A DNA stretch of 63,265 nt, filler included, from Anaerolineae bacterium (GTDB lineage Bacteria > Chloroflexota > Anaerolineae > Epilineales > Epilineaceae), in assembly GCA_029262755.1 (NCBI GenBank). It is 6 parts of 6 records of this genome, joined end to end, with 100 filler letters (N's around TTAATTAATTAA, not from the genome) between each part and the next. Parts side by side here need not be neighbours in the genome. Positions count along the whole stretch, not along the records: positions 1 to 25,716 come from JAJCYU010000073.1; 5 more parts are not named here. The stretch is one strand, 5' to 3'. The notes under the pieces were generated by a model. It searched no databases, had not been told where the DNA came from, and saw only the letters and a list, made by a program, of their open reading frames with translations. The first letter of the stretch is position 1. Every line of letters starts with the position of its first letter. Below, in pieces: positions 4,515-20,196 of the stretch. The position numbers were made by a program, and so were the translations under genes.

Positions 4515-5548
4515 CAGGAGGCCTCCGTCGAGGAGTCCGCCACGACGGCGGCATGGGTGTCGGTGGGGGACAACGTTCCGGACGACGCTCGATCGCCCGT
4601 GCCTTCGCCTTGCTGCGCGACAGGACCGGCGGTGATGCCCATCGCCGCAAGGAAGATGTCCTCGAGCGAGTCGCGGCGGTGGCTGAAGCGGCGGATATGT
4701 ACGTCGTTGGCAGCCGCGGCCGCGTAGAGATCGCGGACCGTGACTTCGGCCGGTGTGATTACCTTCAGCTGCGAGCGGCCATGTAGCGCCACCTGGCAGC
4801 CGAGCTCTGCCACGGCCGCGGCGAAGGCCTGGCGATCGCCACGGATCTCGATGTCCAGGAAGCGTTGGTTGGTCTTGCGCTCAGCCGCCAGATCGCAATG
4901 CCGCGCGATGCGGCCGTCCTTGAGGATCAGCACCTCTTCGCAAGCCTGCTCCACGTCGTGCAACAGGTGGCTGGAGAGGACGATGGTGACGCCGGAATCG
5001 CGGATCTGCTGGACGAGACGCACCATGCGGATTCGTCCGGCCGGGTCGAGCCCATTGGTGGGCTCGTCCAGAAACAGCAGCTTTGGTCCGTGCACGATGG
5101 CCTGCGCGAGCTTCGCCCGCTGCTTCATGCCAAGCGAGTACGTGCGGATCTCGCGGTAGCGCGATTCGCCCAAGCCCACCGCGATCAAGGCCTCATGCGC
5201 ACGCTCGAGCGCAACGCGCGGCGGCAAGCCGGAAAGCTCGCCCATGAGCCGCACGAAGCGCACGGCGCTCATGTCACCGATGAAGCTGTCGCGCTCCGGC
5301 ATGTAGCCCACCAACCGGCGCAATGCGCGCGCGTCATTCCGATCACGAATGTCGTGGCCGAGTACCTCGGCCGTGCCCGCGCTGGGACGGTGGAAACCGA
5401 GCAACGTGTGGATCAGGGTGGTCTTGCCCGCACCGTTGGGCCCGAGCAGGCCCAGCGCGCGGCCGGAAAGTTCCGCCGAGAGATCGTGCAGGATCGGGCG
5501 CCCGCCAAGGCGGACGCCCAGATCCTGCAACGAGATTATCCTGTTCAC
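4514..5548 (-). CDS. ABC transporter ATP-binding protein
   Basis: [29 protein letters not shown] 5548 overlaps the upstream TGA (GTGA). Confidence 0.95.
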
Positions 5549-8500
5549 TTGCCTTCGGATGCCGCGTCGGCGTCGAAGGCGCCTTCGAGCATGAGCGGAT
5601 CGCCCATCGCGTCCCAGTCCGACGGGAGCGGTAGATCGGACGAATCCAGACCGAAGAGCCCTCCCGCGCCAAGGATCGTGCCGAAGTCCAAGGCGCTCGC
5701 CGCGGAGGCGCCGCGCACCCGGATCCGATCCGAGTCGGCCCAGGCCACCAGCAGCGACGGCGCAAGGCTCGTCGCCAGACCCATCTCGGCTCCGCGCGAT
5801 GCCATCGCCTCGTCGGCAACCGCCGCCGCGCCGCCCAACAAACCGCCCAGGTCCTGCCACACGATGGCCGAGAAGTCGACGTCGCCGCCGCTCGGTAGAC
5901 CGGCGCGGAAGGCCGGATCGGTCGTGATGTCCAGGCCGCTCTCGCGGACCCGAGCCGCCTCGCCGATCAAAGCTGGGTTGGAGGAAGCTACGAGATATCC
6001 GTCGAGCACCGCGTAATGCATGCTGAAGACCTCGGCGCCATCCGCCGCGATGCTCCAGATCGTGCGACCGCCAACCTCCTCAGCGCTCAGCGACAAGCGC
6101 CGTCCGCGCAGCGGTTCCGGCATCGCATCGCCGCGCTCCAACTCCTCGGCCGCAATGCGCTCGTTGATCCGCTCCACGGTGTCGGCCACCGCGTTCTGCA
6201 AGGCCGCGTCGTCGTAGACCTCGACGATCAGCTTCCACGACGGCTCCGGCAGCACTGGGCCGTCGAGCGCGAAGGCGACCTCACCACCGAGCGGCGCGGC
6301 CAGGGCACGCAACAGCTCCATGTGCATGACCATGTCGTGATCGACATCCTCGCCGTCCATCGGCATGCCGTGAATTCCCTGCGCCAGGTCGAGCAGCTGC
6401 GCAACGATAACCTCGGGGCGCTCGATCACCGCGGCGCTCACCAAGGTGGCGTCCGTGGAGATGAAGCCAAGCGCGCCCATCGGTGCTGGAGCGGCCAACC
6501 AAGACGCCAAACCCTTGCGCGCGCCGTCGAAGCCGACCGTGGCTTCCAGCTCCGCGCGCCCGTCACGCTCCGTCTGCGTCACGATGACGTGTCCGATGCC
6601 CGCAAGCCCCGAAGCCTCGATGGCCTCGCGGCCCTGCGCGTTCGGGTTCCCGTCATTGTCCGATCCGTCTTGGCTCTCGTTGTCGTCTTCGTACCCATTC
6701 ATGCCGGCGTCGCCGATGACCTCGTCGATGACGTGGCTCTCGAATACGCGACCGACATCCGCGGCGAACAACGCATCCGCGCCGCCCGCCATCGCCTGGG
6801 CGATACCGGTGAGCAGATCCTCGTCCATCGTGGCACCGCCCGCGGCCGACGCGGCCAGCGGGACGAGCGAGGCGGCCATCGGCGACACGCCGACGATGCC
6901 GTTGCCCAGCCACACGTAGAGCGCTTCGTCGATGCCGTTGTCATGCAGCCCAACGAAGGGCGCGTTGCCGTCGGCATCGGCCGTGTTCACGTTGTCCATG
7001 CCGTCATCGGCCACGCCGTTGTTCTCGACGTCGGCGGTCACGTCCGCACCCTCTGCATCCAGCGTGCTCTCCGTGCCGATCGCAGCGTCGACGTCCGCGC
7101 CCGGATTGGGCTCGATCACGGCGTGCTCCGCCACGAAAGCCGCGGGATCGTCCAGGAAGGTCATTGGCGGTAAGTCGCCCTCGTCGGCCAGCGTTGCGAA
7201 GTTGTTCCACTCCGCTTCCACGACCTGGCGGAAAGCCGCGGCGTCCGCGACCTCCGCGAACACGACGGGCAGCGCGGGCTGGCCGTCGGCGTCGAGCGTC
7301 AACGCGATCGCGACCTCGTCGCCGACCTCGCCGCCGAGGCGACCCATGGCCTCGACGAGGGTGTTGATGCGCTGCTCGGTCTGTGGATCGTCCATGCGCT
7401 CGGCCCACCACGTTGCGAGCACCGGGTTCTCCGAAACGCGCTCACGGAACAAGATCCAGCTCTCCGCGAAGGTCGCGCCCAGGTTGGGCAGAGAGACGAA
7501 CACGACCGTGTCCGCCGGCGCCGCCGCGGCCAGCCGCGAGGTGCTGCGCGGACCCGGTCGCGTGACGGTCTCGTCGATCTCGCGCCCGATCTCGACCAGC
7601 GCGGATAGGATTTCTTCGTAGCGCTCCGCGTTCTGGCTCCATGCCACGTCCTGGAAGACGGGCACCGCGCCGACGAGCGGGCTGGACGCAAACTGTTGGC
7701 CCGGCAACAAGCGCGCGCGCTGGCGGCCGCTGGCCACCCCGACCTCGCCCTCGATCACGGAGACGCGCGAGCCCTTCGTACCGTGGCGCACCGCGAAGAT
7801 CGTGCCGCGAACGGTGACGTTCGCATCATCGGTGGCCACGCGCAGCCGGCCGCGTCCCTGGGGCGCGGCTTCGATCACGATGTTTCCCCGCTCTAGGTCG
7901 ACGATCGTGCCGTCGCCTCGGGTGCGCAACGCAAGCTCAGCGCGTGCGTCCAGCTCGATGCGGGAGCCGTCGTCCAGCGTCAGGACGGCTCCACCGTCAC
8001 GGGTCGCACGCAGCCGCTGACCCGGGGTGATCGCATCGCCCACCGCAACCGCGGAGGCGCCGTGATCATCCACGTGCACGAGGCTGCCCTCCACCGTCTC
8101 CACGTGAGCCAACACGCGGTTGGGCATCAACAGATCCTGTCCGGCCCACCACGTCGATAGGCCTGCTACCAGGACCACGGCCGCTGCCACGGCCCACGAG
8201 GCGCGCGAGTGCCACGCGGGGCGTGCCGCCGCCGCGGGCAACGCGACCGGCCGATCCGCCGGCCGCCGACGTCGCGGCGCACCGCTGCGCGCTGCGGTTA
8301 CCGCGGCGCGGAAGGCGGCGTCGGAACCGATGCGGTCCTCGACGAGCATCACCTGGCCGGCATCCAATTCGCCGTCCAGGTAGGCGGGGATCAGCTGCTC
8401 GAGATCGTCCGACCCGGCCACCTGTCCTGCGCGCCCAATCTCGGCCTCGATCTTCGCCCAGGCACGCTGCCCTGTGCTGGAGAGCTCCTGCTCGGACGGC

Positions 8501-8598
8501 GTCTGTGCACGCACGCTCTCGACCGCGCGGTCGAGGAGGGCGTCACGTTGCTCGTCGATGGGGGACATGGCGTCCTTCTCGTTATCGGTCGTGCTCAT
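5545..8598 (-). CDS. Membrane anti-sigma factor: degenerate ZAS-like N-terminus, TM helix, FecR domain and large extracytoplasmic C-terminal domain
   Basis: [10 protein letters not shown]...VEDRI anti-sigma-like N-terminus, [19 protein letters not shown], FecR motifs LDDGSRIEL / [10 protein letters not shown] / [17 protein letters not shown] before ATG 8598; adjacent to the ECF sigma gene. Confidence 0.8.
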
Positions 8599-8698
8599 GG
8601 CTTCCTCTCGCTTCGTAGGGGCCGCCTGTTTGGTGGCCCGTTGCGACCGGGAATTTGTGTTCGAGGCGGATGTGTCGGACGGGTTTGCGCCTTGCGGA

Positions 8699-9343
8699 TC
8701 ACGCATCGTCGGAACCAACCGTCGCGTTCTCACCGTTCACATCCAGGGTGTCGCGCAATCGCTTGCGTGCCCGGAAGAGGGTCACGCCGATGCTGCTCTC
8801 GGACGTGCCCATGTGGGTGGCAATCTCGCGATTGCTCCAGCCTTCGAAGTAGCGCAGGGCGAAGATCTCGCCGACGCGCGGTGCGAGCGCCGCGACCCCG
8901 ATGCGCAGTCGATCGCGCAACTCAGCGGCGCCGTGGCCCGCGTCGCGGTCCGGCGCACCGTCCGACGCGGGCGGTGCATGGCGTTCGCGGGTGGTCGTCG
9001 ACGGCCCTTCGCCGTCGCGCGTCACCTCGAACGGAATGATGTTGCGCCGCTTGCGAGCGCGCACGATGTCGAGCGCGGCGTTGATGGCCGCGCGGTTCAA
9101 GTACGCTGCGGGGTTGTCCAGCCCATCGGGCACGCCTTCACGCGCCAGCCGCAGGAAGACCGTCTGCAAGACGTCCTCCGCGTCGTGGGCGTCGCCCGTG
9201 ATGCGCCATGCGGCTTTTAAAGCCGCGGCATGATGGTCCCGGTAGAGCGCCGCAAGGCGATCTGTCGCCACGGCTTCGCTCCTCCGCGGGCGGGCCTGCC
9301 CGCCACGCAGCAGGCCTCGCCTCAAGGCCGGGGTGGCTGTCAT
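8699..9343 (-). CDS. ECF (sigma-70 group 4) RNA polymerase sigma factor
   Basis: Region 2 DAEDVLQTVFLRL...AYLNRAAINAALD, region 4 FALRYFEGWSNREIA...TLFRARKRLR. SD AGGAGG at 9355-9360; start could also be GTG 9349. Confidence 0.95.
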   Translation of the reverse strand: MTATPALRRGLLRGGQARPRRSEAVATDRLAALYRDHHAAALKAAWRITGDAHDAEDVLQTVFLRLAREGVPDGLDNPAAYLNRAAINAALDIVRARKRRNIIPFEVTRDGEGPSTTTRERHAPPASDGAPDRDAGHGAAELRDRLRIGVAALAPRVGEIFALRYFEGWSNREIATHMGTSESSIGVTLFRARKRLRDTLDVNGENATVGSDDA

Positions 9344-9642
9344 GGTCACGTCCACCTCCTCATTTCGAGGACGGGCTCTTCGTTGCGAGGAGCCACGTCC
9401 GGGTCTACGTCGAATGCGCCGAGCCCTTAGCGGCGGGCTCTTTGAGCGCCGTCGGGTCGATGATTCGTGCCCGACATGCTGTTCGACGCCGAGGAGGAGG
9501 ATTCCATTATCGCATCGCGTACCGATTCAAGCGCGTTCGGATCGCACGCGCGCGGACAGGGAGCAAGGACCGGACGCCGGTGGAGACCGGATGGCGTCGA
9601 CGAACGGTGTCGATGCAATCCGTCCGTGCGATAACAGAGGAC

Positions 9643-9719
9643 GCCCCGCGCCCCGCGCCCCGCGACCTACGCCCCGCGACCTACGCCCCGCGACCTACGA
9701 CCCGCGACCCGCGACCCGC
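9643..9719. repeat. Intergenic short tandem repeat (7-bp CCCGCGA-like units; 14-bp GCCCCGCGACCTAC x3)
   Basis: Seen directly: gccccgcgccccgcgccccgcgacctacgccccgcgacctacgccccgcgacctacgacccgcgacccgcgacccgc. Confidence 0.85.
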
Positions 9720-9775
9720 AACGGATCATCCAGCCGCAGGATGCGTGCTGTCTCGTAGCGTCATGCTACGACGGC

Positions 9776-10207
9776 TCAGGTCACAGTCAGCCGCGTGGGC
9801 TTGAAGGTCGCGGTCTCGGTGAGTACATCCGCGCTGCCTTCGGAGAGCGAGGGAAACTCCAAGCCGGTCAGCAGACAATCCTCGTAGACATAGGATTTGC
9901 CCGTGCCCTTCTTGGTGAGCTCCACGATCACCACATTCCGCCGCTGGTTCTTGCCCTCGACCGTCGCGTTGATCCACTCCAGCATGGCCTTGCGGCCCGC
10001 GGACAGGTTGCCGCGCAGCGTGACCGTATCGACATACTTGTGGCCCGGCGTGGTTTCGTGCGTGGCCGAACGTGGATCCGCCTGGAGCACGATGCCGCCA
10101 CCGGTGCAGGATTCCCACGCGGAATCGGCGTCCGTTCCCGCTTTTCCGCCTAGGATCTCGACGCGGAAACCGTGGACTTTTGTTCGTTGGAAGTTTTCTT
10201 TCGCCAT
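9776..10207 (-). CDS. Phage T4 gp19-like / Afp1-Afp5-like contractile-tail tube protein
   Basis: 143 aa with tube-family pattern FRVEI...PGHKYVDTVTLRG...MLEWIN...RRNVVI...SYVYEDCL...FPSL...ETATFKPTRL. SD GAGGAGG upstream. Confidence 0.8.
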   Translation of the reverse strand: MAKENFQRTKVHGFRVEILGGKAGTDADSAWESCTGGGIVLQADPRSATHETTPGHKYVDTVTLRGNLSAGRKAMLEWINATVEGKNQRRNVVIVELTKKGTGKSYVYEDCLLTGLEFPSLSEGSADVLTETATFKPTRLTVT

Positions 10208-10231
10208 GACGCTGCCTCCTCGGCCAATGCC

Positions 10232-10882
10232 CTACGCTAACTCGACGCGGCTCATCTTGCAGGTGATCGTTTCAACAGCGACATTGGACGACGGGCTGTA
10301 CTCGCCGGGATCCCAGCTCGTCGGGAAGCAATCGTGCGCGTTCCAACGACGTGACTCGGAGCCGTCTCGTTTGAGCACGATCACGGAAATCTGCTTGCGG
10401 ATATCGGCGCCGCGCGCGGCTTCGTCGAACCAGGCCTTGAGCGCATCCGCGTCGGGCCCGGGATAGGTGCGCAAGGTGATCGAGCCGTAATGTCCGTCAC
10501 CGGGGTCGAATTCGCGGTAGTCCCAATCCACGCCCGCCGGCCTCTCGCGCACGTCGAAGCGCAGCGGCTCCGTCGCGACGCCCTCGATCTGCGTCAGCGC
10601 GACACCGTCGATCTCGACCCGGAAACGACCCTCGCCGTTGCGCAGCTCGCCGGCATCGCCAGCCTTGTCCTTGCTCGCCGGCGCCGCGGAGGCGGTCGCC
10701 GTGCTCATGCCGCGCACGCCGGCCAAGGCCGCGCCGGCCGCACCGATCTTGATGACGGTGCGCCGGTCGATACCGGGCGTAGCGGCGCCGTCCTTGCGAT
10801 CCCGCCCGTCTCCGGACTGTGGTTTCGCGTCGGATCGGTCGCAGCTGGAGTCAGTATCGGAGCCAGTGGATGGCACGTTCAT
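10232..10882 (-). CDS. T4 gp19-like tail tube protein with N-terminal twin-arginine (Tat) signal peptide
   Basis: Signal GIDRRTVIKIGAAGAALAGVRGMSTATASA|AP, then tube domain FRVEIDG...PGDGHYGSITLR...LKAWF...RKQISVI...RRWNAHDCFPTSW...VETITCKMSRVEL. SD GAGGGAG before ATG 10882. Confidence 0.8.
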   Translation of the reverse strand: MNVPSTGSDTDSSCDRSDAKPQSGDGRDRKDGAATPGIDRRTVIKIGAAGAALAGVRGMSTATASAAPASKDKAGDAGELRNGEGRFRVEIDGVALTQIEGVATEPLRFDVRERPAGVDWDYREFDPGDGHYGSITLRTYPGPDADALKAWFDEAARGADIRKQISVIVLKRDGSESRRWNAHDCFPTSWDPGEYSPSSNVAVETITCKMSRVELA

Positions 10883-10943: not shown

Positions 10944-10949
10944 AGTATA
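10944..10949 (-). promoter_or_regulatory. Possible -10 element (TATACT) for the tube-gene pair
   Basis: TATACT on the minus strand about 60 nt upstream of ATG 10882 in GC-rich DNA; no clear -35. Confidence 0.4.
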
Positions 10950-11021: not shown

Positions 11022-11781
11022 CTACCGCGGCAGGCCCAACGGCACCGTGACGAGCCCGCCGCCATCGACGGCCACCGCGAGAGTGTCGCCCGTCACCGCG
11101 ATGTCGCGGACGCCGTACCACGAGCTCGGCAACCACCTTCGCGGTCCGAGCGCTACCGGGCGAGCCGGGTCTTGCACGTCGTAGGCTTCGAGCCAACCGC
11201 TACCGTGGACCACCAGCGCCACGTCGCCGTAGGTCGCGAGCCCGCGCACGCCTCGCTCGCTGAGGTGGATCGACGCGCAATGGGTGCGCTTCGGCCAGCG
11301 CGAACACCGCGGTTGAGCCAAGCTCGCTGGGACCGGCCCCCTCGCGCAGCTGCCGGTCGAGCCCGATCAGGCCGTCGATGTCTCGAATCGCGCTCGTCGC
11401 GACCCCCACCCGCCGTCCCGCGACGACGGGTCGACGGAGTGACAGAGAGTCGTGCTCGACCCGTGGTTGGGCAGCGATGTCCGTTACTGCGAACCGCCGA
11501 AGAACATCCGCCCCGCGCTCTCCACGGGCCATGGCGAGCGGCTGACCATCGGGATCGAGGATCGGCCTGCCTTTGTTCGGCCACGGTTCGGTGCGCAGCG
11601 GACCCTCATCCCGTGGCTCCACCCAGAGGGCGCCAACACGTGCTCCGCTCACACGGCTCAATCGTCGTTGTGGCGTAGTCGGAAATCGTCCCATGGAAGG
11701 AGGATGCCCGATGTGCGGCCGACCTTGCACACCGCGTCCCGCCCGTGCTCCTATGCGGCCTTCACGAGTGAGAACGGCCAC
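11022..11781 (-). pseudogene. Decayed LVIVD-repeat surface protein (C-terminal remnant)
   Basis: WLEAYDVQDPARPVALG...VRDIAVTGDTLAVAVDGGGLVTV in 11022..11321; the upstream part appears to be in another frame; no credible start. Confidence 0.55.
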
Positions 11782-11847
11782 TCCCGCGATTCAAGGGCTC
11801 GCTCTGCCCGACGTTGACCCAGAGGGGACCCTGGCCCACTCCAAGAA

Positions 11848-12756
11848 TCACGTGCCCTCGCCGCCCTCGCCGCCCTCGCCGCCTTGACGCTTTCCCTCGC
11901 CCCGCAACTTTCCGCCACCTCGAAGCTCTCCGTCGCCATGAAGTTCACCGTCGCCTGCAAGCTTCCCCCCGCCGGCGAGCTTCCCACCAGCGGCGAGCCT
12001 TCCGCCGCCCGTGAGCTTCCCGCCGCCTGCGAGCCTCCCCTTGCTCGCGAGCCTCCCGTCGCCTGCGAGTCTCTCGTCGCCTTCGACCGACGTGCCTCCC
12101 AGCTGATCGCCGCCCTCGAGCCGCCCATCCGCCGCACCGCTTCCCTGACCCACGATCGGCGCCGCCTCGCCCCAGGTCGCGCCGAAGACGGTTTCGGTCA
12201 GCGGACGGCGAACGCGCGGCGCGTGCTCGCGCTGGGCGAGGGCCTCGGGTAGATCCGCCGGGTCGCCGAGATGGCCGATAGCCACCGCGGTCATGGGCGT
12301 AAACCCTTCGGGAATCCCAAAGGCTTCCCGTGCGCGATCGCGGTCGAAGCCGCCCATCTGGTGCAGGACTAGGCCGCGTGCCGTTGCCTCGACGCTCAGC
12401 TGCGCCAACGCCAGCCCAAGGTCGTGTCCAGCGTGGCGGTTGGGCCGGTCCTTGTAGGCCAGCCGGTCTGCGGTAACGGCCAGCATCAGCACACCGGCCC
12501 GGTGCGCCCAGCTCTGATTGCCCGCGGAGAGACAGCCGACCAGCTTCTGAAACACGATGGGGTCGGCATGCCTGCGCGCGACGATAGAGCGCCAGGGCTG
12601 CTCGTTGAACGAGGAGGGCGCCCAGCGCGCTGCCTCGAGCAAAGAGCGCAGATCCGCGTCGTCGACCGGACGGTCGGCGAAGGCGCGCGGACTCCAGCGC
12701 CGCCGGAGGAGGTCGTGGATCGGGTGATCGACGGGGGCGGAGCGGTCCACGGGCAT
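11848..12756 (-). CDS. Nitroreductase family protein with Gly-rich hexapeptide-repeat C-terminal tail
   Basis: IHDLLRRRWSPRAF, EAARWAPSSFNEQPWR, GLVLHQMGGFD. ATG 12756 with GGGAG SD. Confidence 0.9.
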   Translation of the reverse strand: MPVDRSAPVDHPIHDLLRRRWSPRAFADRPVDDADLRSLLEAARWAPSSFNEQPWRSIVARRHADPIVFQKLVGCLSAGNQSWAHRAGVLMLAVTADRLAYKDRPNRHAGHDLGLALAQLSVEATARGLVLHQMGGFDRDRAREAFGIPEGFTPMTAVAIGHLGDPADLPEALAQREHAPRVRRPLTETVFGATWGEAAPIVGQGSGAADGRLEGGDQLGGTSVEGDERLAGDGRLASKGRLAGGGKLTGGGRLAAGGKLAGGGKLAGDGELHGDGELRGGGKLRGEGKRQGGEGGEGGEGT

Positions 12757-13000: not shown

Positions 13001-13561
13001 TTACGGCGCCCCTCCGCTCAGCCGCTGCGCAAAGTCCGTGTCGGGCTCCAACATGTCCACGGCGGCTGCCGCGGTGGACATCGCTTCGTCCGTGGTGGGC
13101 AACTCGCTCATGCGCCGCAGAAACTCGGTCTGCGATAGCACGCGCACGTACCGCTCCACTTCGGGCACGGGCAGGCCGCACATCGTGTCCATGTCCAGCG
13201 CCAGATCCGCCTCGGCGGTGGTGGTCAGGGCGAGGGTCAACCCCGCGCCGGGCATGGCGGCCTCGAGCAGCCCGACTTCCGGCACCCGGAAAAAGTACGT
13301 GTAATCGAGGCTGTCGAGCCGCAGCGTGACCGGGGCGCCGGTGGGCAGGAGGACGTCGCGGGTACCGTAGCGGTCATCGTCCGTACCGAGCACGCCGTCC
13401 ACGCCCGGATAGCGCACGTACCACTCGTGATCGATGCCGGTCAGCTCGACCACCACCGGACCCTCCGGCATTCCCGAGCCACCACACGCGGTCGCGATGA
13501 ACGCCACGGCCGCCGCGCAGAGCAGCGCGGTGGGCCGTAGTGCGCGGCGGCGAGCGGTCAT
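13001..13561 (-). CDS. Cytochrome c oxidase subunit II-like cupredoxin lipoprotein lacking most CuA ligands
   Basis: Lipobox IATAC; VELTGIDHEWYVRYPG...LPTGAPVTLRLDSLDYTYFFRVPE...MPG...MCG. ATG 13561 overlaps the upstream TGA. Confidence 0.7.
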   Translation of the reverse strand: MTARRRALRPTALLCAAAVAFIATACGGSGMPEGPVVVELTGIDHEWYVRYPGVDGVLGTDDDRYGTRDVLLPTGAPVTLRLDSLDYTYFFRVPEVGLLEAAMPGAGLTLALTTTAEADLALDMDTMCGLPVPEVERYVRVLSQTEFLRRMSELPTTDEAMSTAAAAVDMLEPDTDFAQRLSGGAP

Positions 13562-15774
13562 TCGCTCGCGCTCTCCTCCACGATCTCCACCGCGGTCCCG
13601 CTCGCGATCGGACCCTCGAGCACCTGCGTGGCGCCCGTCGGCCACGTTACCTCGATACGATCGGCTGCGCTCACGTCGCCCAAGCCGACGTACAACGGCT
13701 GATCGCTCTGCGCGAGGTAGCCGGACTGGCCGTCGTGGGCAAAGGTCTGGGTCATCGCGCCGGAGATCACCCGAACCACGGCGCCGAGGCCGTCGCGGTT
13801 GGAGGTGGTGCCCTCGAGATCGATGGTCAGGTAGTTCAGACCCCCCAGCTCCGACAGGTTGCTGGTGAGCACCATGGGCGGCGCGTTCCACTCGCCCATG
13901 ATGACATCGAGATCGCCGTCTTGGTCGATGTCCACCAGCAGCGTGCCGCGGCTGCTGTGCGCCTCCGCGTAGCGTACGATGCCCTCTTCTCCGTCGCAGT
14001 GGCGGTTGCCCGCGTCGGGGCCGTCGCAATCGACCACGAACCATGGGCGGAAGAGCGATCCGTCCGGCCGCGGCTCGAGCCCGACCGCGAACTCCGCGTC
14101 CACGAAGCCCGCTCCGGCGTTGTTGAGCAAGAGGCTGTTGGGACCGTAGCGGAACCAGAAGCCCATGCCCGCTGAGATCAGCGCGTCCTCGTAGCCGTCC
14201 GCGTTCAGATCGCCGATGCTCAGCCCCCAGGGCCAATACATCTCGGCGCCCGTGTCGTCCGAAACGTCGGCAAACGCACCGCCGTCCGCCTCGAAGAGCG
14301 CGTTGCCGAAGATGCTGATGCCGCCCGTGCGCAAGGTGGATTCGGGCCACTGCTGGCGCATCTTGAGCTTGTCGTACTCCGCCGTCGTGTTCTCCATCAT
14401 GTCCGAGTGCATGTCGGTGACGAGCAGATCGAGATCGCCGTCGTTCTCCATGTCCAACGTCCCTGCGCCCATGGCCCCCCAAGGCGTGTAGGGGAACACC
14501 TCGCGGCTACGGCGCACGAAGGCCTGGCCCTGCTGGTTCTCGTAGTACTCGTCGTTGCCTTGCATGTCCAGCACGTAGAGGTCGATCCAGCCGTCCTCGT
14601 TGGCGTCGATGGGCGCCATGTCGCCCGTCCAGCTTGGGTCCGTGCCCAAGCCCATGGCCTCCGTCACGTCCGCGAAGACGCCGCCGCCCTCGTTGTGGTA
14701 CAAGCGGCTGACCTCGAGGCGGTCCGCATAGGCGTGGCCGGCGAACGCGTCGCTCAGACCGACCCAGTAGCGGTAGGCAAGCGGGTCTTCCAGGTCGTTC
14801 GTATCGGCGGCCGCGGCCTGCTCGCTTCGACCGGTGTACACCCCGACAACCGACAGATAGAGGTCGAGGTTGCCGTCCTTGTCGTAGTCGAAGAAATCGG
14901 CGCTGGACGAATGGCCCTTGTAGCCGAGCCCCGCCGCCGCCGTACCATCTACGAAGGTGCCGCCGCCCTCGTTGAGGAAGAGGTGATCGCCCTCCTTGAT
15001 CGTGCTCACGTACAGGTCGGGATCGCCGTCGTTGTCGATGTCCGCGAAGGAGGCCGTGACGCTGATGACCTCGTCCAGGCCGACGCCCGCCTGCGCCGTG
15101 ATGTCCTCGAACTCGCCGCCGCCGAGACCGCGGTACAAGGCGTTGGAACCGACCTGCGATACGAAGTAGAGGTCGAGCAGACCGTCACCGTCGACATCGG
15201 CCGTGATCACGCCGTTGCCGTGATCGTAGTGGTTGTTCTTCATCTCCTTGGCGCCATCGGGCGTGGCTCGATGCCGCCAGGTGATGCCGCTGCTCGCCAG
15301 CGCGTCGCTCAGCCGAAAGTCGGCCCGCACGCCGGACGCGTCCACCGTGGCGGCCTGCGCCGTCGTGCGCTCCGCCACCCATTCCGGATCGGCGGGCAGG
15401 TCGTCGACCTTCAAGTACAGCGGCGGCAAGGTCTCGCGCTCTTCGGGAACCATCGTCGGCAGCGGCGGAACCGTGACGGATTCGCCGCCGGCCATGCTCT
15501 CGTCGGATGCCGCGTCCGACGAAGCGTCCTCGCTCGCATTCGAGCTCTCGTCGCCCGCCTCCGTGCTCGCGCTCGCGTCGGCAGCCTCCGTGAGCGCCAT
15601 CTCGACCGCCGGGCCATCGGGTTCGACCGGCGCATCCTCGGACACGTTCGCGCGACAGCCGGACATGACGAGCAGGGCCCCGAGCGCCACAGGAGCGCAG
15701 CGGCGGACCAAGTCCGGTCGGACGTCGGAGCGCGGGGACGAGGCCCAGCGCGATAGTCGGGAAAAAGCGTTCAC
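13558..15774 (-). CDS. CRTAC1/ASPIC-UnbV family lipoprotein (FG-GAP repeats), paralog 3
   Basis: Lipobox VMSGC; DxDxDGxxDLY repeats; C-terminal ASPIC/UnbV NRDGLGAVV...GQSGYLAQSD...GLG...IEVTWP. Confidence 0.9.
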   Translation of the reverse strand: MNAFSRLSRWASSPRSDVRPDLVRRCAPVALGALLVMSGCRANVSEDAPVEPDGPAVEMALTEAADASASTEAGDESSNASEDASSDAASDESMAGGESVTVPPLPTMVPEERETLPPLYLKVDDLPADPEWVAERTTAQAATVDASGVRADFRLSDALASSGITWRHRATPDGAKEMKNNHYDHGNGVITADVDGDGLLDLYFVSQVGSNALYRGLGGGEFEDITAQAGVGLDEVISVTASFADIDNDGDPDLYVSTIKEGDHLFLNEGGGTFVDGTAAAGLGYKGHSSSADFFDYDKDGNLDLYLSVVGVYTGRSEQAAAADTNDLEDPLAYRYWVGLSDAFAGHAYADRLEVSRLYHNEGGGVFADVTEAMGLGTDPSWTGDMAPIDANEDGWIDLYVLDMQGNDEYYENQQGQAFVRRSREVFPYTPWGAMGAGTLDMENDGDLDLLVTDMHSDMMENTTAEYDKLKMRQQWPESTLRTGGISIFGNALFEADGGAFADVSDDTGAEMYWPWGLSIGDLNADGYEDALISAGMGFWFRYGPNSLLLNNAGAGFVDAEFAVGLEPRPDGSLFRPWFVVDCDGPDAGNRHCDGEEGIVRYAEAHSSRGTLLVDIDQDGDLDVIMGEWNAPPMVLTSNLSELGGLNYLTIDLEGTTSNRDGLGAVVRVISGAMTQTFAHDGQSGYLAQSDQPLYVGLGDVSAADRIEVTWPTGATQVLEGPIASGTAVEIVEESASE

Positions 15775-15868
15775 GATGCTCTCCTAGAGCGCGGCCGAAT
15801 CGGCGGCGCATGGTTTGCGGGGCGCGGGCGTAGAGCTACGACGGTGCAGGTCACCGGCCTTAACGGCC

Positions 15869-17953
15869 TTATTCCTGGACGATCTCGAGGGTGGTGCCTG
15901 CCGCGAAGGGCCCTTCGACCACCTGCGTAGCGCCGCCCGGCCAGGTAACCTCGACGCGTTCCACGTCTGAGGCGTCGCCGAGGCCGAAGTACAAGGGTAG
16001 ATCGCTTTGCGCCAGATAGCCCGATTGGCCGTCGTTGACCTTGACTTGGTCGCGCCCACCGGCCCGCACGCGCACGACGGCGCCCAACGCGTCGCGGTTG
16101 GCACTGGTGCCCTCCAGCTCCACCGTTACGGAGTGCAGTCCGCCGCGTTCGTCGAGATTGTTGCGCAGGATCATCGGGCTCGTGTTCCACTCGCCCATGA
16201 CGACGTCCAAATCGCCGTCCTCTTCCAGATCGAGCATCAGCGTAGCGCGGCTGCTGTGCGCTTCCCAGAACTGGACGACGCCCGTCTTGTCCGCACAATG
16301 CGATAACTCCGCGTCCGCCCCGTCGCAATCGACCGCAAACCATGGCTGGAAGAAGGTGCCGCTTGGGCGTGGCTCGAGGCCGACGACGAACTCCGCGTCG
16401 ACGAAGCGTTCGCCACCGTCGTTGAGCAAGAGGCTGTTGGGCCCGTAGCGGAAGGTAAAGCCCATGCCGGCCGAGATCAGCGCGTCGTCCCATCCGTCCG
16501 CGTTGATGTCACCGGTGCTCAGGCCCCAAGGCCAAAACATCTCCGCACCATTCTCGTCCGAGATTTCCGTGTAGCCATCGTCTCCGGCCTCGAAGAAGGA
16601 GTTGCCGAGGATGCTGATGCCACCGGTGAGGAACGTGGCTTCCGGCCACATGGGCCGAGCCTTCGACTTGTCGTATTGCGGAGCCAGGTCTTCGATCATG
16701 TCGGAGTGCATATCCGTCACGAACAGATCCTGTGCGCCGTCGCCGTTCCAGTCCAAGACTTCGCCGCCCATGGCGCCCCATGACGTGTTGTTGAACACTT
16801 CGCGGCTGCGCTTCGTGAAGCCCGTACCCTGCTGGTTCTCGTAGTATTCGTCATTGCCCTGCATGTTGAGCAGGTACAGGTCCGTCCAGCCGTCTTGGTT
16901 GATGTCCACCGGCAACGTGTCGCCGTTCCACGCGCGTTCGTCGGCCAGCCCCATCGCGTCCGTGACATCCTCGAATCGGCCGTCGCCCACATTGTGGAAC
17001 AACCGGCCGCTCTCGGTCCGGTCGCGGAAGGTGTGGCCCGCGAACGCATCCTCCAGGCCGACCCAATACTCGTAGTCCTGGGGATCCGCGGGATCGTTCG
17101 TATCGGCCGCCGCCGGTGCCTTGTCCGCCGTGGTATAGATGCCGACCACGGACACGTACAGGTCGAGCAAACCGTCCTGGTCGTAGTCGAAGAAGTCGGC
17201 GGCGGAAGGGTGTCCGAGATAGTCCGCGCCCGATTCGGCACTGGCGTCGCGAAACACGCCGCTACCGTCGTTGAGGAACAGGCGATTGCCTTCCTTGATG
17301 GTCGTGACGTAGAGATCGGGATCGCCGTCGTTGTCGACGTCCGCGAAAGAGGCCGAGACGCTGACCGCATCGTCCACCGCAACCCCCGCCTGCTCCGTGA
17401 CGTCCTCGAAGCGCCCCTCGCCCAGCCCGCGCATCAGGCCGTTCGCACCGATCTGCGATACGAAGTACAGGTCCGTAAGGCCGTCTCCGTCGACGTCCGC
17501 GGCGGCGATGCCGTTGCCGTGGTCGTAGTGGTTGGGCTTGAACACCTTGGCCCCATCCGGCGTCGTCCGATGCTGCCAAGCGATTCCGCTCTCGGCCAGC
17601 CCGTCCGTCAGGCGAAAGTCCGCACGCAGGTCGGTCGCGCCGATGGCGCTCGCCTGCTCCGCGGAACGCGCCGCCAACCAACCCGGCGGCGGCGGCGCTT
17701 CGTCGCCGCTGAAGTAGGCCTTGGGCGACAGTTCCCGCTCCGCCATGTCATCGCCCGTGCCGGCGCTCGTATCAGTCGGCGCGGCTACGGCGGTGGTCGC
17801 GATTTCGACTGGAGCGACGGGCTCGGCGGGGGCATCCGGCTCCCCCGCGTCGCACGCGGCAACGCCTAACGAGAGTGCGCAGGCAGCGAATACCAGGAGA
17901 TGCGGCCGCCACAGGGAGCGAAACGCGGATAGGTCAGGGCGCAACGGGGGCAC
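15869..17953 (-). CDS. CRTAC1/ASPIC-UnbV family lipoprotein, paralog 2
   Basis: GTG 17953 after SD AAGGAG; lipobox GVAAC; same repeat and ASPIC/UnbV motifs. Confidence 0.9.
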   Translation of the reverse strand: MPPLRPDLSAFRSLWRPHLLVFAACALSLGVAACDAGEPDAPAEPVAPVEIATTAVAAPTDTSAGTGDDMAERELSPKAYFSGDEAPPPPGWLAARSAEQASAIGATDLRADFRLTDGLAESGIAWQHRTTPDGAKVFKPNHYDHGNGIAAADVDGDGLTDLYFVSQIGANGLMRGLGEGRFEDVTEQAGVAVDDAVSVSASFADVDNDGDPDLYVTTIKEGNRLFLNDGSGVFRDASAESGADYLGHPSAADFFDYDQDGLLDLYVSVVGIYTTADKAPAAADTNDPADPQDYEYWVGLEDAFAGHTFRDRTESGRLFHNVGDGRFEDVTDAMGLADERAWNGDTLPVDINQDGWTDLYLLNMQGNDEYYENQQGTGFTKRSREVFNNTSWGAMGGEVLDWNGDGAQDLFVTDMHSDMIEDLAPQYDKSKARPMWPEATFLTGGISILGNSFFEAGDDGYTEISDENGAEMFWPWGLSTGDINADGWDDALISAGMGFTFRYGPNSLLLNDGGERFVDAEFVVGLEPRPSGTFFQPWFAVDCDGADAELSHCADKTGVVQFWEAHSSRATLMLDLEEDGDLDVVMGEWNTSPMILRNNLDERGGLHSVTVELEGTSANRDALGAVVRVRAGGRDQVKVNDGQSGYLAQSDLPLYFGLGDASDVERVEVTWPGGATQVVEGPFAAGTTLEIVQE

Positions 17954-18069
17954 GGGATGCTCCTTGGAATGGTAGAGCCGCAAACGGCACCCATGATAAC
18001 ACCGACTTTGCCGTTCGCGGCTATTCCATGCCCGATGTCTGCTCCATCTGTGTTCTTGAACGAGTCCTT

Positions 18070-20196
18070 CTACTGGACGATATCCACGCGCATTCCTGCC
18101 TCGAAGGGGCCGTCGACGATCTGTGTGCCGCCGCCGGGCCACGTCACCTCGATGCGCTCGACCGTGCTCGCGTCGCCTAGACCGAAGTAGAGTGGCTGAT
18201 CGCTCTGCGCAAGGTAGCCCGACTGCCCGTCGTGCACGCGCACTTGCTCGCGCCCGCCTGCGACGACGCGCACGACGGCGCCCAGGCCGTCGCGGTTGGC
18301 CGTGGTGCCCTCCAGATCGATCGTGATCGTGTTGAGTTCGCCAAGCTGCGCCAAGTCGCTGGTCAGGACCATCGGCGGGGCGTTCCACTCGCCGGTCACC
18401 ACATCGAGGTCACCATCGCCTTCGAGGTCCACCAGCACCGATCCGCGGGAGCTATGCGGCTCCCAGAGCTGGAGGATGCCCGTCTGGCCTTCGCACAGCG
18501 GGTGCTGCGCATCCCGCCCGTCGCAGTCCAGGACGAACCATTTGCGAAAGTACGTCCCGTCCGGTCGTGGCTCGAGCCCCACGACGAACTCGGCGTCCAC
18601 GAAGCCCTGTCCCGCCTCGTTGAGCAGCAAGCTGTTAGGGGCGTAGCGGAACGTGAAGCCCATGCCGCCGGCGACCAGGATGTCCTCCCAGCCGTCGGCG
18701 TTCAGGTCGCCCGCGCTCGCGCCCCAGGGCCAATAGGTCTCGCTGCCGTTGGCGTCGGAGATCTCGGTGTAGCGCACGTCCTCTTCACCGGCGCCTTCCT
18801 CCGCCTCGTAGAACGCGTTGCCGAGGATGCTGATGCCGCCGGTGAGCAACGTGGAATCCGGCCACAGCGGGCGCGACTTGAGTTTGTCGTACGCGATCGT
18901 CGTGTTCTCCTGCATGTCGGAGTGCATATCCATGACGAAGAGATCCTGGGCGCCGTCGCCGTTGAAGTCGCGTGCCAGGGCGGCCATGGCGCCCCAGGGT
19001 GTGTTGGGGAAAAGCGCGCGACCGCGCGAGACGAAGCCTCGGCCCTGCTGGTTCTCGTAGTACTCGTCGTTGCCCTGCATGTTGAGCACATACAGATCTG
19101 TCCACCCATCGCGGTTGACGTCCATCGGCACGGCGTCGCCGCTCCAGCCGCGCTCGTCCGCGAAGCCCATGGCCGCGGTGACGTCCTCGAAGCGGCCGTT
19201 GCCCGTGTTGCGGTAGAGGCGGCTGCCTTCGGTTCGATCGCCGTACATATGACCGGAGAAGGCGTCCTCCAGGCCGATGTAATAGGAGTAGGCGCGTGGA
19301 TCCTCGACGTCGTTGGTGTCGAGAGCGGCCGGACCCTGTTCGCGCGCTGTGTAGACGCCCACCACGGACAGGAAGAGGTCGAGCAGCCCGTCTTGGTCGT
19401 AGTCGAAGAAGTCCGCGGCAGAAGAGTGGCCCACATAGTCGACGCCAGAGCCCTCGCTCACGTCTGTGAAGCCACCGGCGCCGTCGTTGAGGAAGAGGCG
19501 ATTCCCCTCCTTCAACGTCGTGACGTACAGGTCGGGGTCGCCGTCATTGTCGATATCCGCGAACGAGGCCGTCACGCACACAACGGAATCGAGCGCGAGA
19601 CCTTCGTCGGTGACGTCCTCGAATCGACCATCGCCCACATTCCGGTACAGCGCGTTCGAACCGATCTGCGTGATGAAGTACAGGTCTTGCAGCCCGTCTC
19701 CGTCGATGTCGGCAGTCGAGACGCCGTTCCCGTGGTCGTAGTGGTTGGCCTTGAAGGCGATGGCACCGTCCGGCGTGGTCCGGTGCCGCCACGTGATGCC
19801 GCTCTCGGGCAACGCGTCCGTGAGCCGAAAGTCGGCCCGCACGGGCGAGGCCTCCACCGAGCTTCGCTGCGTCGCGACGTGTCCGGGGAGCCAATCAGGG
19901 TCGTCCGGCGCCACGGGCCCCGCCTTATGGGTCTTGGGCGACTGTTCGCGCTCGCCGTTGGGCTGCACGGCGTCGGAGGTCGGCTCCGAAACCGGGAGGA
20001 CGGGATCGATGCCGGCTTCCGCGGCGCGTTCCGCGGTGCCAGGCTCTGCGATCGACGCGGATTCGCCCGGCGCATCAATAGTGTCCGTGCCAGGTGCGCA
20101 GGCCGATATGACGATGGTGACGACCAACGCCGCCACGCCAGAGAAGAAGAATCGTCGGGTGCTGGAGAGGTGTGCGTGATGATGTGCTCGGGCCAT
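18070..20196 (-). CDS. CRTAC1/ASPIC-UnbV family lipoprotein, paralog 1
   Basis: SD AGGGAG; lipobox VISAC; same repeat and ASPIC/UnbV motifs. Confidence 0.9.
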   Translation of the reverse strand: MARAHHHAHLSSTRRFFFSGVAALVVTIVISACAPGTDTIDAPGESASIAEPGTAERAAEAGIDPVLPVSEPTSDAVQPNGEREQSPKTHKAGPVAPDDPDWLPGHVATQRSSVEASPVRADFRLTDALPESGITWRHRTTPDGAIAFKANHYDHGNGVSTADIDGDGLQDLYFITQIGSNALYRNVGDGRFEDVTDEGLALDSVVCVTASFADIDNDGDPDLYVTTLKEGNRLFLNDGAGGFTDVSEGSGVDYVGHSSAADFFDYDQDGLLDLFLSVVGVYTAREQGPAALDTNDVEDPRAYSYYIGLEDAFSGHMYGDRTEGSRLYRNTGNGRFEDVTAAMGFADERGWSGDAVPMDVNRDGWTDLYVLNMQGNDEYYENQQGRGFVSRGRALFPNTPWGAMAALARDFNGDGAQDLFVMDMHSDMQENTTIAYDKLKSRPLWPDSTLLTGGISILGNAFYEAEEGAGEEDVRYTEISDANGSETYWPWGASAGDLNADGWEDILVAGGMGFTFRYAPNSLLLNEAGQGFVDAEFVVGLEPRPDGTYFRKWFVLDCDGRDAQHPLCEGQTGILQLWEPHSSRGSVLVDLEGDGDLDVVTGEWNAPPMVLTSDLAQLGELNTITIDLEGTTANRDGLGAVVRVVAGGREQVRVHDGQSGYLAQSDQPLYFGLGDASTVERIEVTWPGGGTQIVDGPFEAGMRVDIVQ

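Follow-up and report, generated by a model that had tools for sequence, protein, structure and literature searches.

The window analysed here is a stretch of 63,265 nucleotides from the genome bin of an Anaerolineae bacterium (assembly GCA_029262755.1), in which positions 1-25716 represent a single contig, C73, and the remainder represents other contigs. C73 carries two adjacent genes, designated here A and B, whose products resemble the inner-tube proteins of phage tails and contractile injection systems (CIS); an earlier note on this DNA had described them as an orphan tube-protein operon in which A bears an export signal of the twin-arginine translocation (Tat) type. As that note had stated, the two genes are intact: open reading frames (ORFs) of 216 and 143 amino acids lie 24 nucleotides apart on the minus strand, each with a purine-rich Shine-Dalgarno-like box, 9 nucleotides (A) or 7 nucleotides (B) ahead of its ATG, and each with a coding-type GC content at third codon positions (GC3) of 0.79. 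The two are probably carried on one transcript, to judge from the following layout.

10232 to 10882, minus strand: gene A, inner-tube protein of 216 amino acids with a putative Tat signal (ORF; PF06841 at 53.7 bits, residues 86-213)
10679 to 10882, minus strand: signal region of A (residues 1-68), from the sequence and from alignment with the twin-arginine signals of homologues
10232 to 10678, minus strand: mature tube domain of A, which holds the most conserved stretch of the family (residues ~117-136)
10208 to 10231, minus strand: 24-nucleotide A-B spacer with the Shine-Dalgarno-like box of B and no terminator-like site in its sequence
9776 to 10207, minus strand: gene B, signal-less paralogous tube protein of 143 amino acids, unusually diverged (PF06841 at 30.9 bits)

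Both proteins exceed the 28.2-bit cut-off of PF06841 (Phage_T4_gp19), and thus belong to the gp19/Afp-type tube family to which they had been assigned. Neither is recognized by the NCBIfam equivalogs for individual tube types; A scored 29.9 bits against CIS1 (cut-off 220) and 19.0 bits against CIS5 (cut-off 260), B gave no match to either model, and the sheath-linked relatives described below likewise fell far under both cut-offs. A structure of A was predicted with AlphaFold (AF2) using 30 relatives; the predicted local distance difference test (pLDDT) score of the core was mostly >84, the N-terminal 75 residues were unstructured, and residues 121-130, part of the most conserved stretch, were unordered in the monomer (pLDDT <50). 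When the model was searched with Foldseek, 28 Protein Data Bank (PDB) entries matched at E<=1e-3, with Pvc1 (9qgl_1A, E 5e-7) and Afp1 at the top; the leading matches (9qgl_1A, 6j0b_a and 6rap_A) are 23-27% identical to A and were followed by other CIS tubes and Hcp. These matches assign the model to the tube fold, a beta-sandwich with one flanking helix, and the predicted fold of A is that of an inner tube of an extracellular contractile injection system (eCIS), in line with the earlier assignment. B, which was modelled only together with A, reached a pLDDT of 77-79 in the complex runs.

A differs from ordinary tube proteins by an N-terminal extension of 68 residues, and B has no signal. The extension reads, in order, as a long acidic/serine-rich n-region, a twin arginine (RR) at residues 40-41 (codons 10760-10765), an uncharged, Ala/Gly-rich core of 11 residues, an arginine and an A-S-A site; the RR pair, hydrophobic stretch and cleavage site reported earlier can therefore be read directly from the sequence. 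A twin arginine, a mildly hydrophobic core, a basic c-region and an AxA site are the features of a Tat signal, and all are present in A by sequence and by homologue alignment. Between the ATG at 10882 and the RR codons the only other in-frame start is GTG 10876, and the next ones, GTG ~10717 and ATG 10708, fall after the hydrophobic core; the RR motif is therefore included whichever start is used to produce the conserved N-terminal region. The internal start at ATG 10708, which the earlier note had named as a possible objection, is further disfavoured because the RR-hydrophobic region matches its homologues (45-55% identical) residue by residue; the region aligns with the RR signals of P0002, P0003, P0004, P0006 and P0038.

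Signals of this kind recur among relatives. By our own rule 34 single-domain relatives are Tat-like. Of 137 proteins scanned with PF10518, 14 matched at E<=0.01; every one of these is single-domain, and four (P0047, P0050, P0070 and P0169) exceed the cut-off; the signal at locus L023 scored 29.1 bits for PF10518, and the A protein of locus L014 passes TIGR01409. L014 carries two copies of the pair; the ratio of nonsynonymous to synonymous substitution (dN/dS) between them comes to 0.35 both in the signal region and in B and to 0.31 in the A core, values that indicate purifying selection on all three. TatC, the component of the Tat translocase that was searched for, is encoded in the source genome (212 bits, G000:C227).

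The source genome bin (5.06 Mb in 428 contigs, 84% complete) contains a single PF06841 locus, the A/B pair itself, and a genome-wide search, in which the spike family was not included, found no PF04984 sheath, PF04865 baseplate-J or PF04965 gp25 gene; the suggestion that a machine lacking only its tubes might lie elsewhere in the genome finds no support in these families. On the 25.7-kb contig, likewise, no sheath, baseplate, spike or AAA+ gene occurs among the Pfam-scanned ORFs, as the earlier note had observed. The A/B locus lacks the sheath and baseplate genes of a working eCIS.

Relatives were gathered by a word-based protein search (38 proteins), by a pattern scan that covered a single genome of each species (12 loci) and from metagenome contigs (19 loci); A and B domains were placed by phmmer and hidden Markov models (HMMs), and 155 neighbouring ORFs were Pfam-scanned. 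Signal-less split pairs consist of A followed by B, ~149 amino acids each, and in the stop-to-stop frame of their A the core is preceded by only 14-44 residues, among which nothing resembles a signal. A sheath gene lies immediately upstream in all seven signal-less pairs for which upstream sequence was available (L016, L018, L020, L021, L022, L024 and L025); L017 and L019, also signal-less, were left out of this count because their contigs are too short on that side. L021 additionally carries Pvc16_N and eCIS_core, and L022 and L025 carry DUF6760 downstream. Such loci are genuine contractile injection loci, and identity between the A of the window and the A proteins they encode is 51-58%.

The signal-bearing loci present a different setting. 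In none of 17 such loci did the fetched flanks contain a gene for sheath, baseplate or spike (the window, L002-L009, L014 twice, L015, L023, L026, L027, L029 and L030; L027 is a near-copy of L005, and L028, identical to L006, was not counted). Their neighbours vary, and include nonribosomal peptide synthetase, restriction-modification, toxin-antitoxin, transposase and housekeeping genes; L007 has one Mu-portal-like neighbour and L004 a weak LysM match. PF04984 is missing from nine of ten genomes with signal-bearing or RHS-fused forms, and the tenth has two matches, one at a contig end and one among the tail genes of a Mu-like prophage that also supplies Gp36, Gp37, GpP and baseplate-J.

The pair stands alone on its contig, as the label of orphan implied; the label nonetheless understates it, for the pair is a member of a large family. 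In the closest relative (P0002, locus L015) A is 59% identical and the order A, B, extracytoplasmic function (ECF) sigma factor is kept, the gene after B being 66% identical over 85 amino acids to the ECF sigma of the window. Within the phylum of the window (401 genomes), 24 genomes, its own included, had matches at E<=1e-10; the other 23 matches are weak (best 2.5e-19) and short-framed (141-203 amino acids) and were therefore taken as ordinary tube genes, and two genomes of the same family gave no match and no close homologue. A word-based search with B returned only two relatives, a scan of viral contigs returned none, and PADLOC gave no meaningful match for A, B or three relatives. The ten Tat-type proteins that were looked up are all metagenome sequences in clusters of 1-2 members. 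At L014 the two pairs of Tat-type A and signal-less B (5950-7020 and 11039-12108) lie 5 kb apart on one metagenome contig, with MazF, RHH, PIN/VapB and a second MazF between them.

A profile search of 1.84 billion representatives yielded 1725 matches at E<=1e-3, 339 at E<=1e-10 and 62 at E<=1e-30. The best 150 of the 1725, together with the sequences collected earlier, were classified with the A and B HMMs and a simple signal rule of our own, and signal-bearing forms made up most of the best 150. From 181 sequences of <=720 amino acids with a near-complete A domain, five N-terminal fragments were removed, which left 176. Signals of the Tat type and of the general secretory (Sec) type were distributed unevenly between separate and fused forms, as follows.

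Single A: Tat-like 34; Sec-like 5, of which 2 are A-A tandems; no signal 47
A and B in one chain (A-B, B-A or A within B): Tat-like 5; Sec-like 77; no signal 8, several with visibly mis-called starts

The association of Tat with split genes and of Sec with fusion gave a Fisher p of 2e-19, uncorrected for phylogeny, and mean core hydropathy was 1.43 in Tat-like against 2.68 in Sec-like signals. Fusion took place in the orders A-B, B-A and B(N-half)-A-B(C-half). In all four Tat-type split loci with downstream sequence (the window, L014 twice and L015), a B without signal follows ~10-25 nucleotides after A, so that one partner carries the signal and the genes lie together, as in Tat hitch-hiker pairs. 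Sec threads unfolded chains. For Tat, the transport of folded complexes with the signal on one subunit is described in PMC4273604 and PMC10924467. We reasoned that, because Sec exports unfolded chains, a partner can cross by that route only if it is fused; Sec with fusion and Tat with separate genes is the pattern expected if A and B must reach the outside together.

Further architectures were noted. A is inserted between the two halves of B, in a circularly nested arrangement, at L005, L009, L026, L027 and L029 and in P0005 and P0033. In P0061, P0076, P0113 and P0186 (629-695 amino acids) the pair, with A within B, stands behind TolB-like PD40 propellers; in P0182 it stands behind a collagen triple-helix repeat, and in P0151 (1943 amino acids) it lies inside a protein with Ig-like and DUF4214 domains. 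RHS-repeat proteins tipped by tube domains occur at L011 (6636-8777; partial A and full B), at L012 (3-3704; partial A) and in P0143 (CIS_tube and gp19).

When mature A and B were submitted together to complex prediction, the pair scored 0.74 (best of three controls, 0.20), a mark that 116 of 157 solved complexes attain and that 2 of 215 mismatched pairs attain as well. The A-B runs shared at least 85% of contacts, with a partner pLDDT of at least 77, and in the predicted interface strand 99-111 of A pairs with strand 112-122 of B. As modelled, adjacent subunits of a tube ring touch laterally in this way. The prediction, along with the comparative pattern of Tat with split and Sec with fused forms, lends some support to a possible hitch-hiking of B.

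The fused relative P0042 was predicted as one confident unit (pLDDT 86, predicted template-modelling score 0.83). Its A domain matched CIS tubes at Z 13-14 (VIA), and the matches that extend across both domains were phage baseplate hub-type chains (9euf_E, Z 9.1; 8eon_E, Z 8.7; 8kea_A, Z 8.4), which align 181-218 of 331 residues with Z values that are only middling; these matches fit a predicted trimer that mimics a hexamer. A siphophage tandem-domain tube arrangement (8hrg, 8ed0) was also considered for the fused model and rejected (Foldseek rmsd ~26 Å). The most conserved A-domain stretch of the exported forms corresponds to residues ~117-136 of the window's A, which, by analogy with tube proteins in general, may mediate ring stacking.

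When 62 rows were placed in a tree with B as the root, those with a signal were interleaved with sheath-linked rows, and L023 (Tat) grouped with the signal-less P0008 and P0014 at 99/81. Forcing the 22 signal-bearing rows into one clade cost 35.5 log-likelihood units, with a p-value of 0.043 in the approximately unbiased test (p-AU), and in a quick tree of 176 rows the starred branches force at least four changes to the Tat-single and at least seven to the Sec-fused form; the tree basis is 148 columns, on which many branches are unresolved. End branches of exported forms measured 0.5-1.6 against a median of 0.1, that of the window's A being 0.86. Because the rows interleave and the starred branches force multiple changes, repeated recruitment of the tube pair for export appears likely.

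From this evidence we lean towards the reading that A and B are paralogous inner tubes of one eCIS lineage which have been freed from their machine and are exported via Tat, with B as passenger. The gene structure, family and fold, the descent from sheath-linked pairs, the missing machine, the conserved signal and the split/fused pattern are shown by the data; export itself, the passage of B with A and ring assembly are inferred. In the mechanism we propose, A would fold in the cytoplasm and bind B through the strand-to-strand lateral contact of tube-ring neighbours; the folded A-B unit would then be taken through the Tat translocase by the twin-arginine signal of A, with B as a signal-less passenger, and the signal would be cleaved at A-S-A. 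Outside the membrane, A and B would form sheath-less rings, hetero-hexamers in which A alternates with B and which correspond to trimers of the fused A-B form, and these rings may stack, since the most conserved stretch of the family is kept. Our best guess for their role there is that of a module at the cell surface, a ring or hub that assembles by itself. A broader proposal, that bacteria of many phyla repeatedly recruited the tube gene pair of one contractile-injection lineage into a widespread, undescribed secreted class (with Sec on the fusion or Tat on the first split gene) whose sheath-free rings or tubes serve as surface nanotube, hub or decoy against injection particles of the donor lineage, is conceivable, and we hold it only tentatively.

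Several observations weigh against the export of an A-B unit by Tat. By all curated models the Tat signal of the window's A is marginal: it scored 17.9 bits against PF10518, under the cut-off of 22.7, and TIGR01409 did not match A at E<=0.01. Its uncharged core is only 11 residues long, its RR at residues 40-41 makes for an unusually long n-region, and our first signal rule, which required 12 uncharged residues, scored the window's A as "none". The Sec/Tat calls are those of our own heuristic; three single-domain proteins (P0102, P0140 and P0178) carry Sec-like signals, and the Tat-type split context comprises only four loci from three lineages. Independent contrasts yielded only four that were well supported, 3.7 in the expected direction and 0 in the opposite one, an underpowered comparison (sign test p 0.125). 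The pass of the complex prediction may reflect likeness to solved tube rings rather than binding of the window's copy, because tube homo-oligomers and the Hcp2-Hcp3 hetero-hexamer are solved structures. Lastly, B is the lone deviant in 10 of 18 otherwise-invariant columns, which include the strand that normally reads FP..YVFP and lie partly in the predicted interface strand; the window's B may be decaying or changing partner.

These deviations of B, the FP..YVFP strand included, would suit a decaying remnant, in which the family is real and the window's copy is drifting, A perhaps still being exported or membrane-anchored and B being unbound or not exported. The short-cored signal under the Pfam cut-off, the long end branch of A (0.86) and the lack of a close homologue in the two same-family genomes searched point the same way. 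We nevertheless regard a remnant as rather unlikely, given that both ORFs are intact with a GC3 of 0.79 each, that A deviates in none of 11 one-deviant columns, that the complex prediction passed with the window's own diverged B (0.74 against 0.20) and that the A-B-sigma arrangement is kept in the closest relative. Were A and B instead ordinary cytoplasmic tubes, the RR would be fortuitous or the start would be ATG 10708, and the other injection or prophage genes would sit in the unassembled 16% of the genome. A genome that is 84% complete in 428 contigs leaves room for this, and the nearest relatives that lack a signal are genuine tube pairs linked to a sheath gene; yet sheath, baseplate-J and gp25 are all missing from the genome, as the sheath is from nine of ten other carrier genomes, and sheath-linked loci place the tubes directly after the sheath, where the window has a nitroreductase and an ECF sigma factor as neighbours. 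The RR region is, moreover, conserved with homologues, whereas the A frames of sheath-linked loci have only 14-44 residues before the core and nothing signal-like. We consider ordinary tubes very improbable.

Two other explanations concern what the exported pair would do. It could be an anti-injection decoy: a pair repeatedly captured from one eCIS lineage and exported, which would cap or mis-assemble the incoming tubes of that lineage. Interleaving with sheath-linked rows (at least four and seven forced changes, p-AU 0.043), long end branches, a patchy spread across phyla and the location of L002, L003, L009 and L014 among toxin-antitoxin, restriction-modification, HEPN and transposase genes speak for this reading. 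PADLOC gave no match, however, no defence genes adjoin the pair in the window, no mechanism or precedent is known, the PD40, collagen, Ig-like and giant surface-protein fusions look more like a structural module, and the tree of 148 columns leaves many branches unresolved; a decoy is in our judgement a distinctly unlikely role. Alternatively the tube pair could be a delivered effector, since three RHS-repeat proteins (L011, L012 and P0143) end in tube domains at the C-terminal tip where toxins normally sit. In L011 and L012 the A part is cut short, as recombination debris would be, no immunity-like gene was recognised beside the RHS-tube proteins, the majority of the family are simply Sec or Tat proteins and the fold has no recognised toxic motif, so that we give the idea of a payload scarcely any credence.

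In the textbook view, tube proteins of phage tails, tailocins, eCIS and type VI secretion systems assemble in the cytoplasm and exit only by contraction or lysis. The inner tubes of eCIS (Pvc1/Afp1, Pvc5/Afp5 and Streptomyces Cis1a) have the PF06841 family, the fold and the side-by-side paralogues in common with A and B, but they are made without a signal peptide, are built up on a baseplate within a sheath inside the cytoplasm and are encoded in loci of 15-20 genes, whereas the A/B pair has a putative Tat signal on A and no machine genes. In gp27/VgrG-type hubs and in Hcp2-Hcp3 of Bacteroides fragilis (PDB 9vne/9vnd), two tube-fold units alternate in a six-fold ring, to which the lateral contact predicted for A and B is akin; hubs and Hcp, unlike the arrangement proposed here, are working parts of a contractile machine, whose contraction, rather than Sec or Tat, carries them out of the cell.

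The hydrogenase HybO-HybC and DmsAB are Tat hitch-hiker complexes. In hitch-hikers such as PaoABC, a signal-less partner encoded by an adjacent gene is exported after folding while bound to the signal-carrying subunit (PMC4273604 and PMC10924467). A and B are alike in that their genes adjoin and only one of the two carries a signal. The known hitch-hikers are cofactor redox enzymes, whose folding in the cytoplasm is needed for cofactor insertion, whereas no cofactor is expected in A or B, and a phage-derived structural protein is not among the Tat cargoes in the available parts of the same two sources. No description of secreted or signal-bearing tube proteins was found in the literature searched, which did not extend to subscription journals and supplements; in PMC12210884, "signal peptide" denotes the N-terminus by which eCIS toxins are loaded as cargo. 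A family of exported, sheath-less tube pairs from the eCIS lineage is thus apparently undescribed. If true, export signals and a missing machine across a large tube family would amount to a new fate for phage-derived parts. A two-domain unit that is exported fused via Sec and split via Tat would be a natural experiment on export logic, through which Tat co-export of a structural complex without cofactor becomes directly testable. Rings that stack would represent a secretable protein nanotube of simple genetic make-up, and rings that act as decoys a first defence against contractile injection particles.

The remaining features around the pair are as follows.

10944 to 10949, minus strand: TATACT, possible but unsupported -10 box, 62 nucleotides upstream of the ATG of A; lone local match
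9753 to 9771, minus strand: 7-bp hairpin after the stop of B, no better than chance (z -0.77)
8699 to 9355, minus strand: ECF sigma factor downstream of B (Pfam Sigma70_r2/r4_2)
5545 to 8733, minus strand: FecR/zf-HC2 anti-sigma factor of 1062 amino acids, which overlaps the end of the sigma gene (Pfam FecR, 58.3 bits); context only

The regulatory signals of the earlier note fared less well than its genes. TATACT, which had been placed ahead of each gene, has a single local copy ahead of A only, and its four copies in the window compare with 2.5 expected by chance. The proposed hairpin lacks a T-run, and 41 of 200 shuffled sequences folded equally well; a consensus scan of the gene strand found neither a sigma-70 promoter nor a terminator. 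A regulatory link between the ECF sigma/anti-sigma genes (5545-9355, minus strand) and the tube pair is possible. The ECF-type promoter consensus GGAAC-N14-19-CGT does not occur ahead of A or ahead of the sigma gene, and 16 occurrences across the window do not exceed chance. The C-terminal ~700 residues of the anti-sigma factor have no assigned domain. Within the 420-nucleotide gap between B and the sigma gene, a 14-nucleotide GC-rich unit is repeated in tandem (9641-9719; 4.9 copies, 90% matches).

Besides A and B, the contig encodes the ECF sigma factor, the FecR-type anti-sigma factor, a nitroreductase, ABC ATPases, three FG-GAP/ASPIC proteins and housekeeping functions. For its triosephosphate isomerase, the best-matching named relatives are Anaerolineae bins with 65-67% identity, which is no more than a lead towards Chloroflexota. 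Among sequencing runs, one biofilm metagenome contains this DNA and may be its source; no RNA run was listed for it. The gap between A and the nitroreductase gene (11022-11847) holds only a 99-amino-acid ORF (11022-11321, minus strand), with coding-like GC3 and no Pfam match, and overlapping ORFs; this region may be a gene fragment or a frameshifted gene. Beyond the contig, positions 25717-60269 of the window are a chain of contigs (at least six in all) linked by paired runs of 44 N. In an actinomycete bin, L004 (1-4690, minus strand) encodes a class II ribonucleotide reductase with an intein and LAGLIDADG domain, 3 kb from the fused tube gene. The three FG-GAP/UnbV_ASPIC genes of C73 are consecutive paralogues (13558-20196, minus strand; 708-839 amino acids), and at L014 an FG-GAP protein is encoded ~1.7 kb upstream of the first A/B pair.

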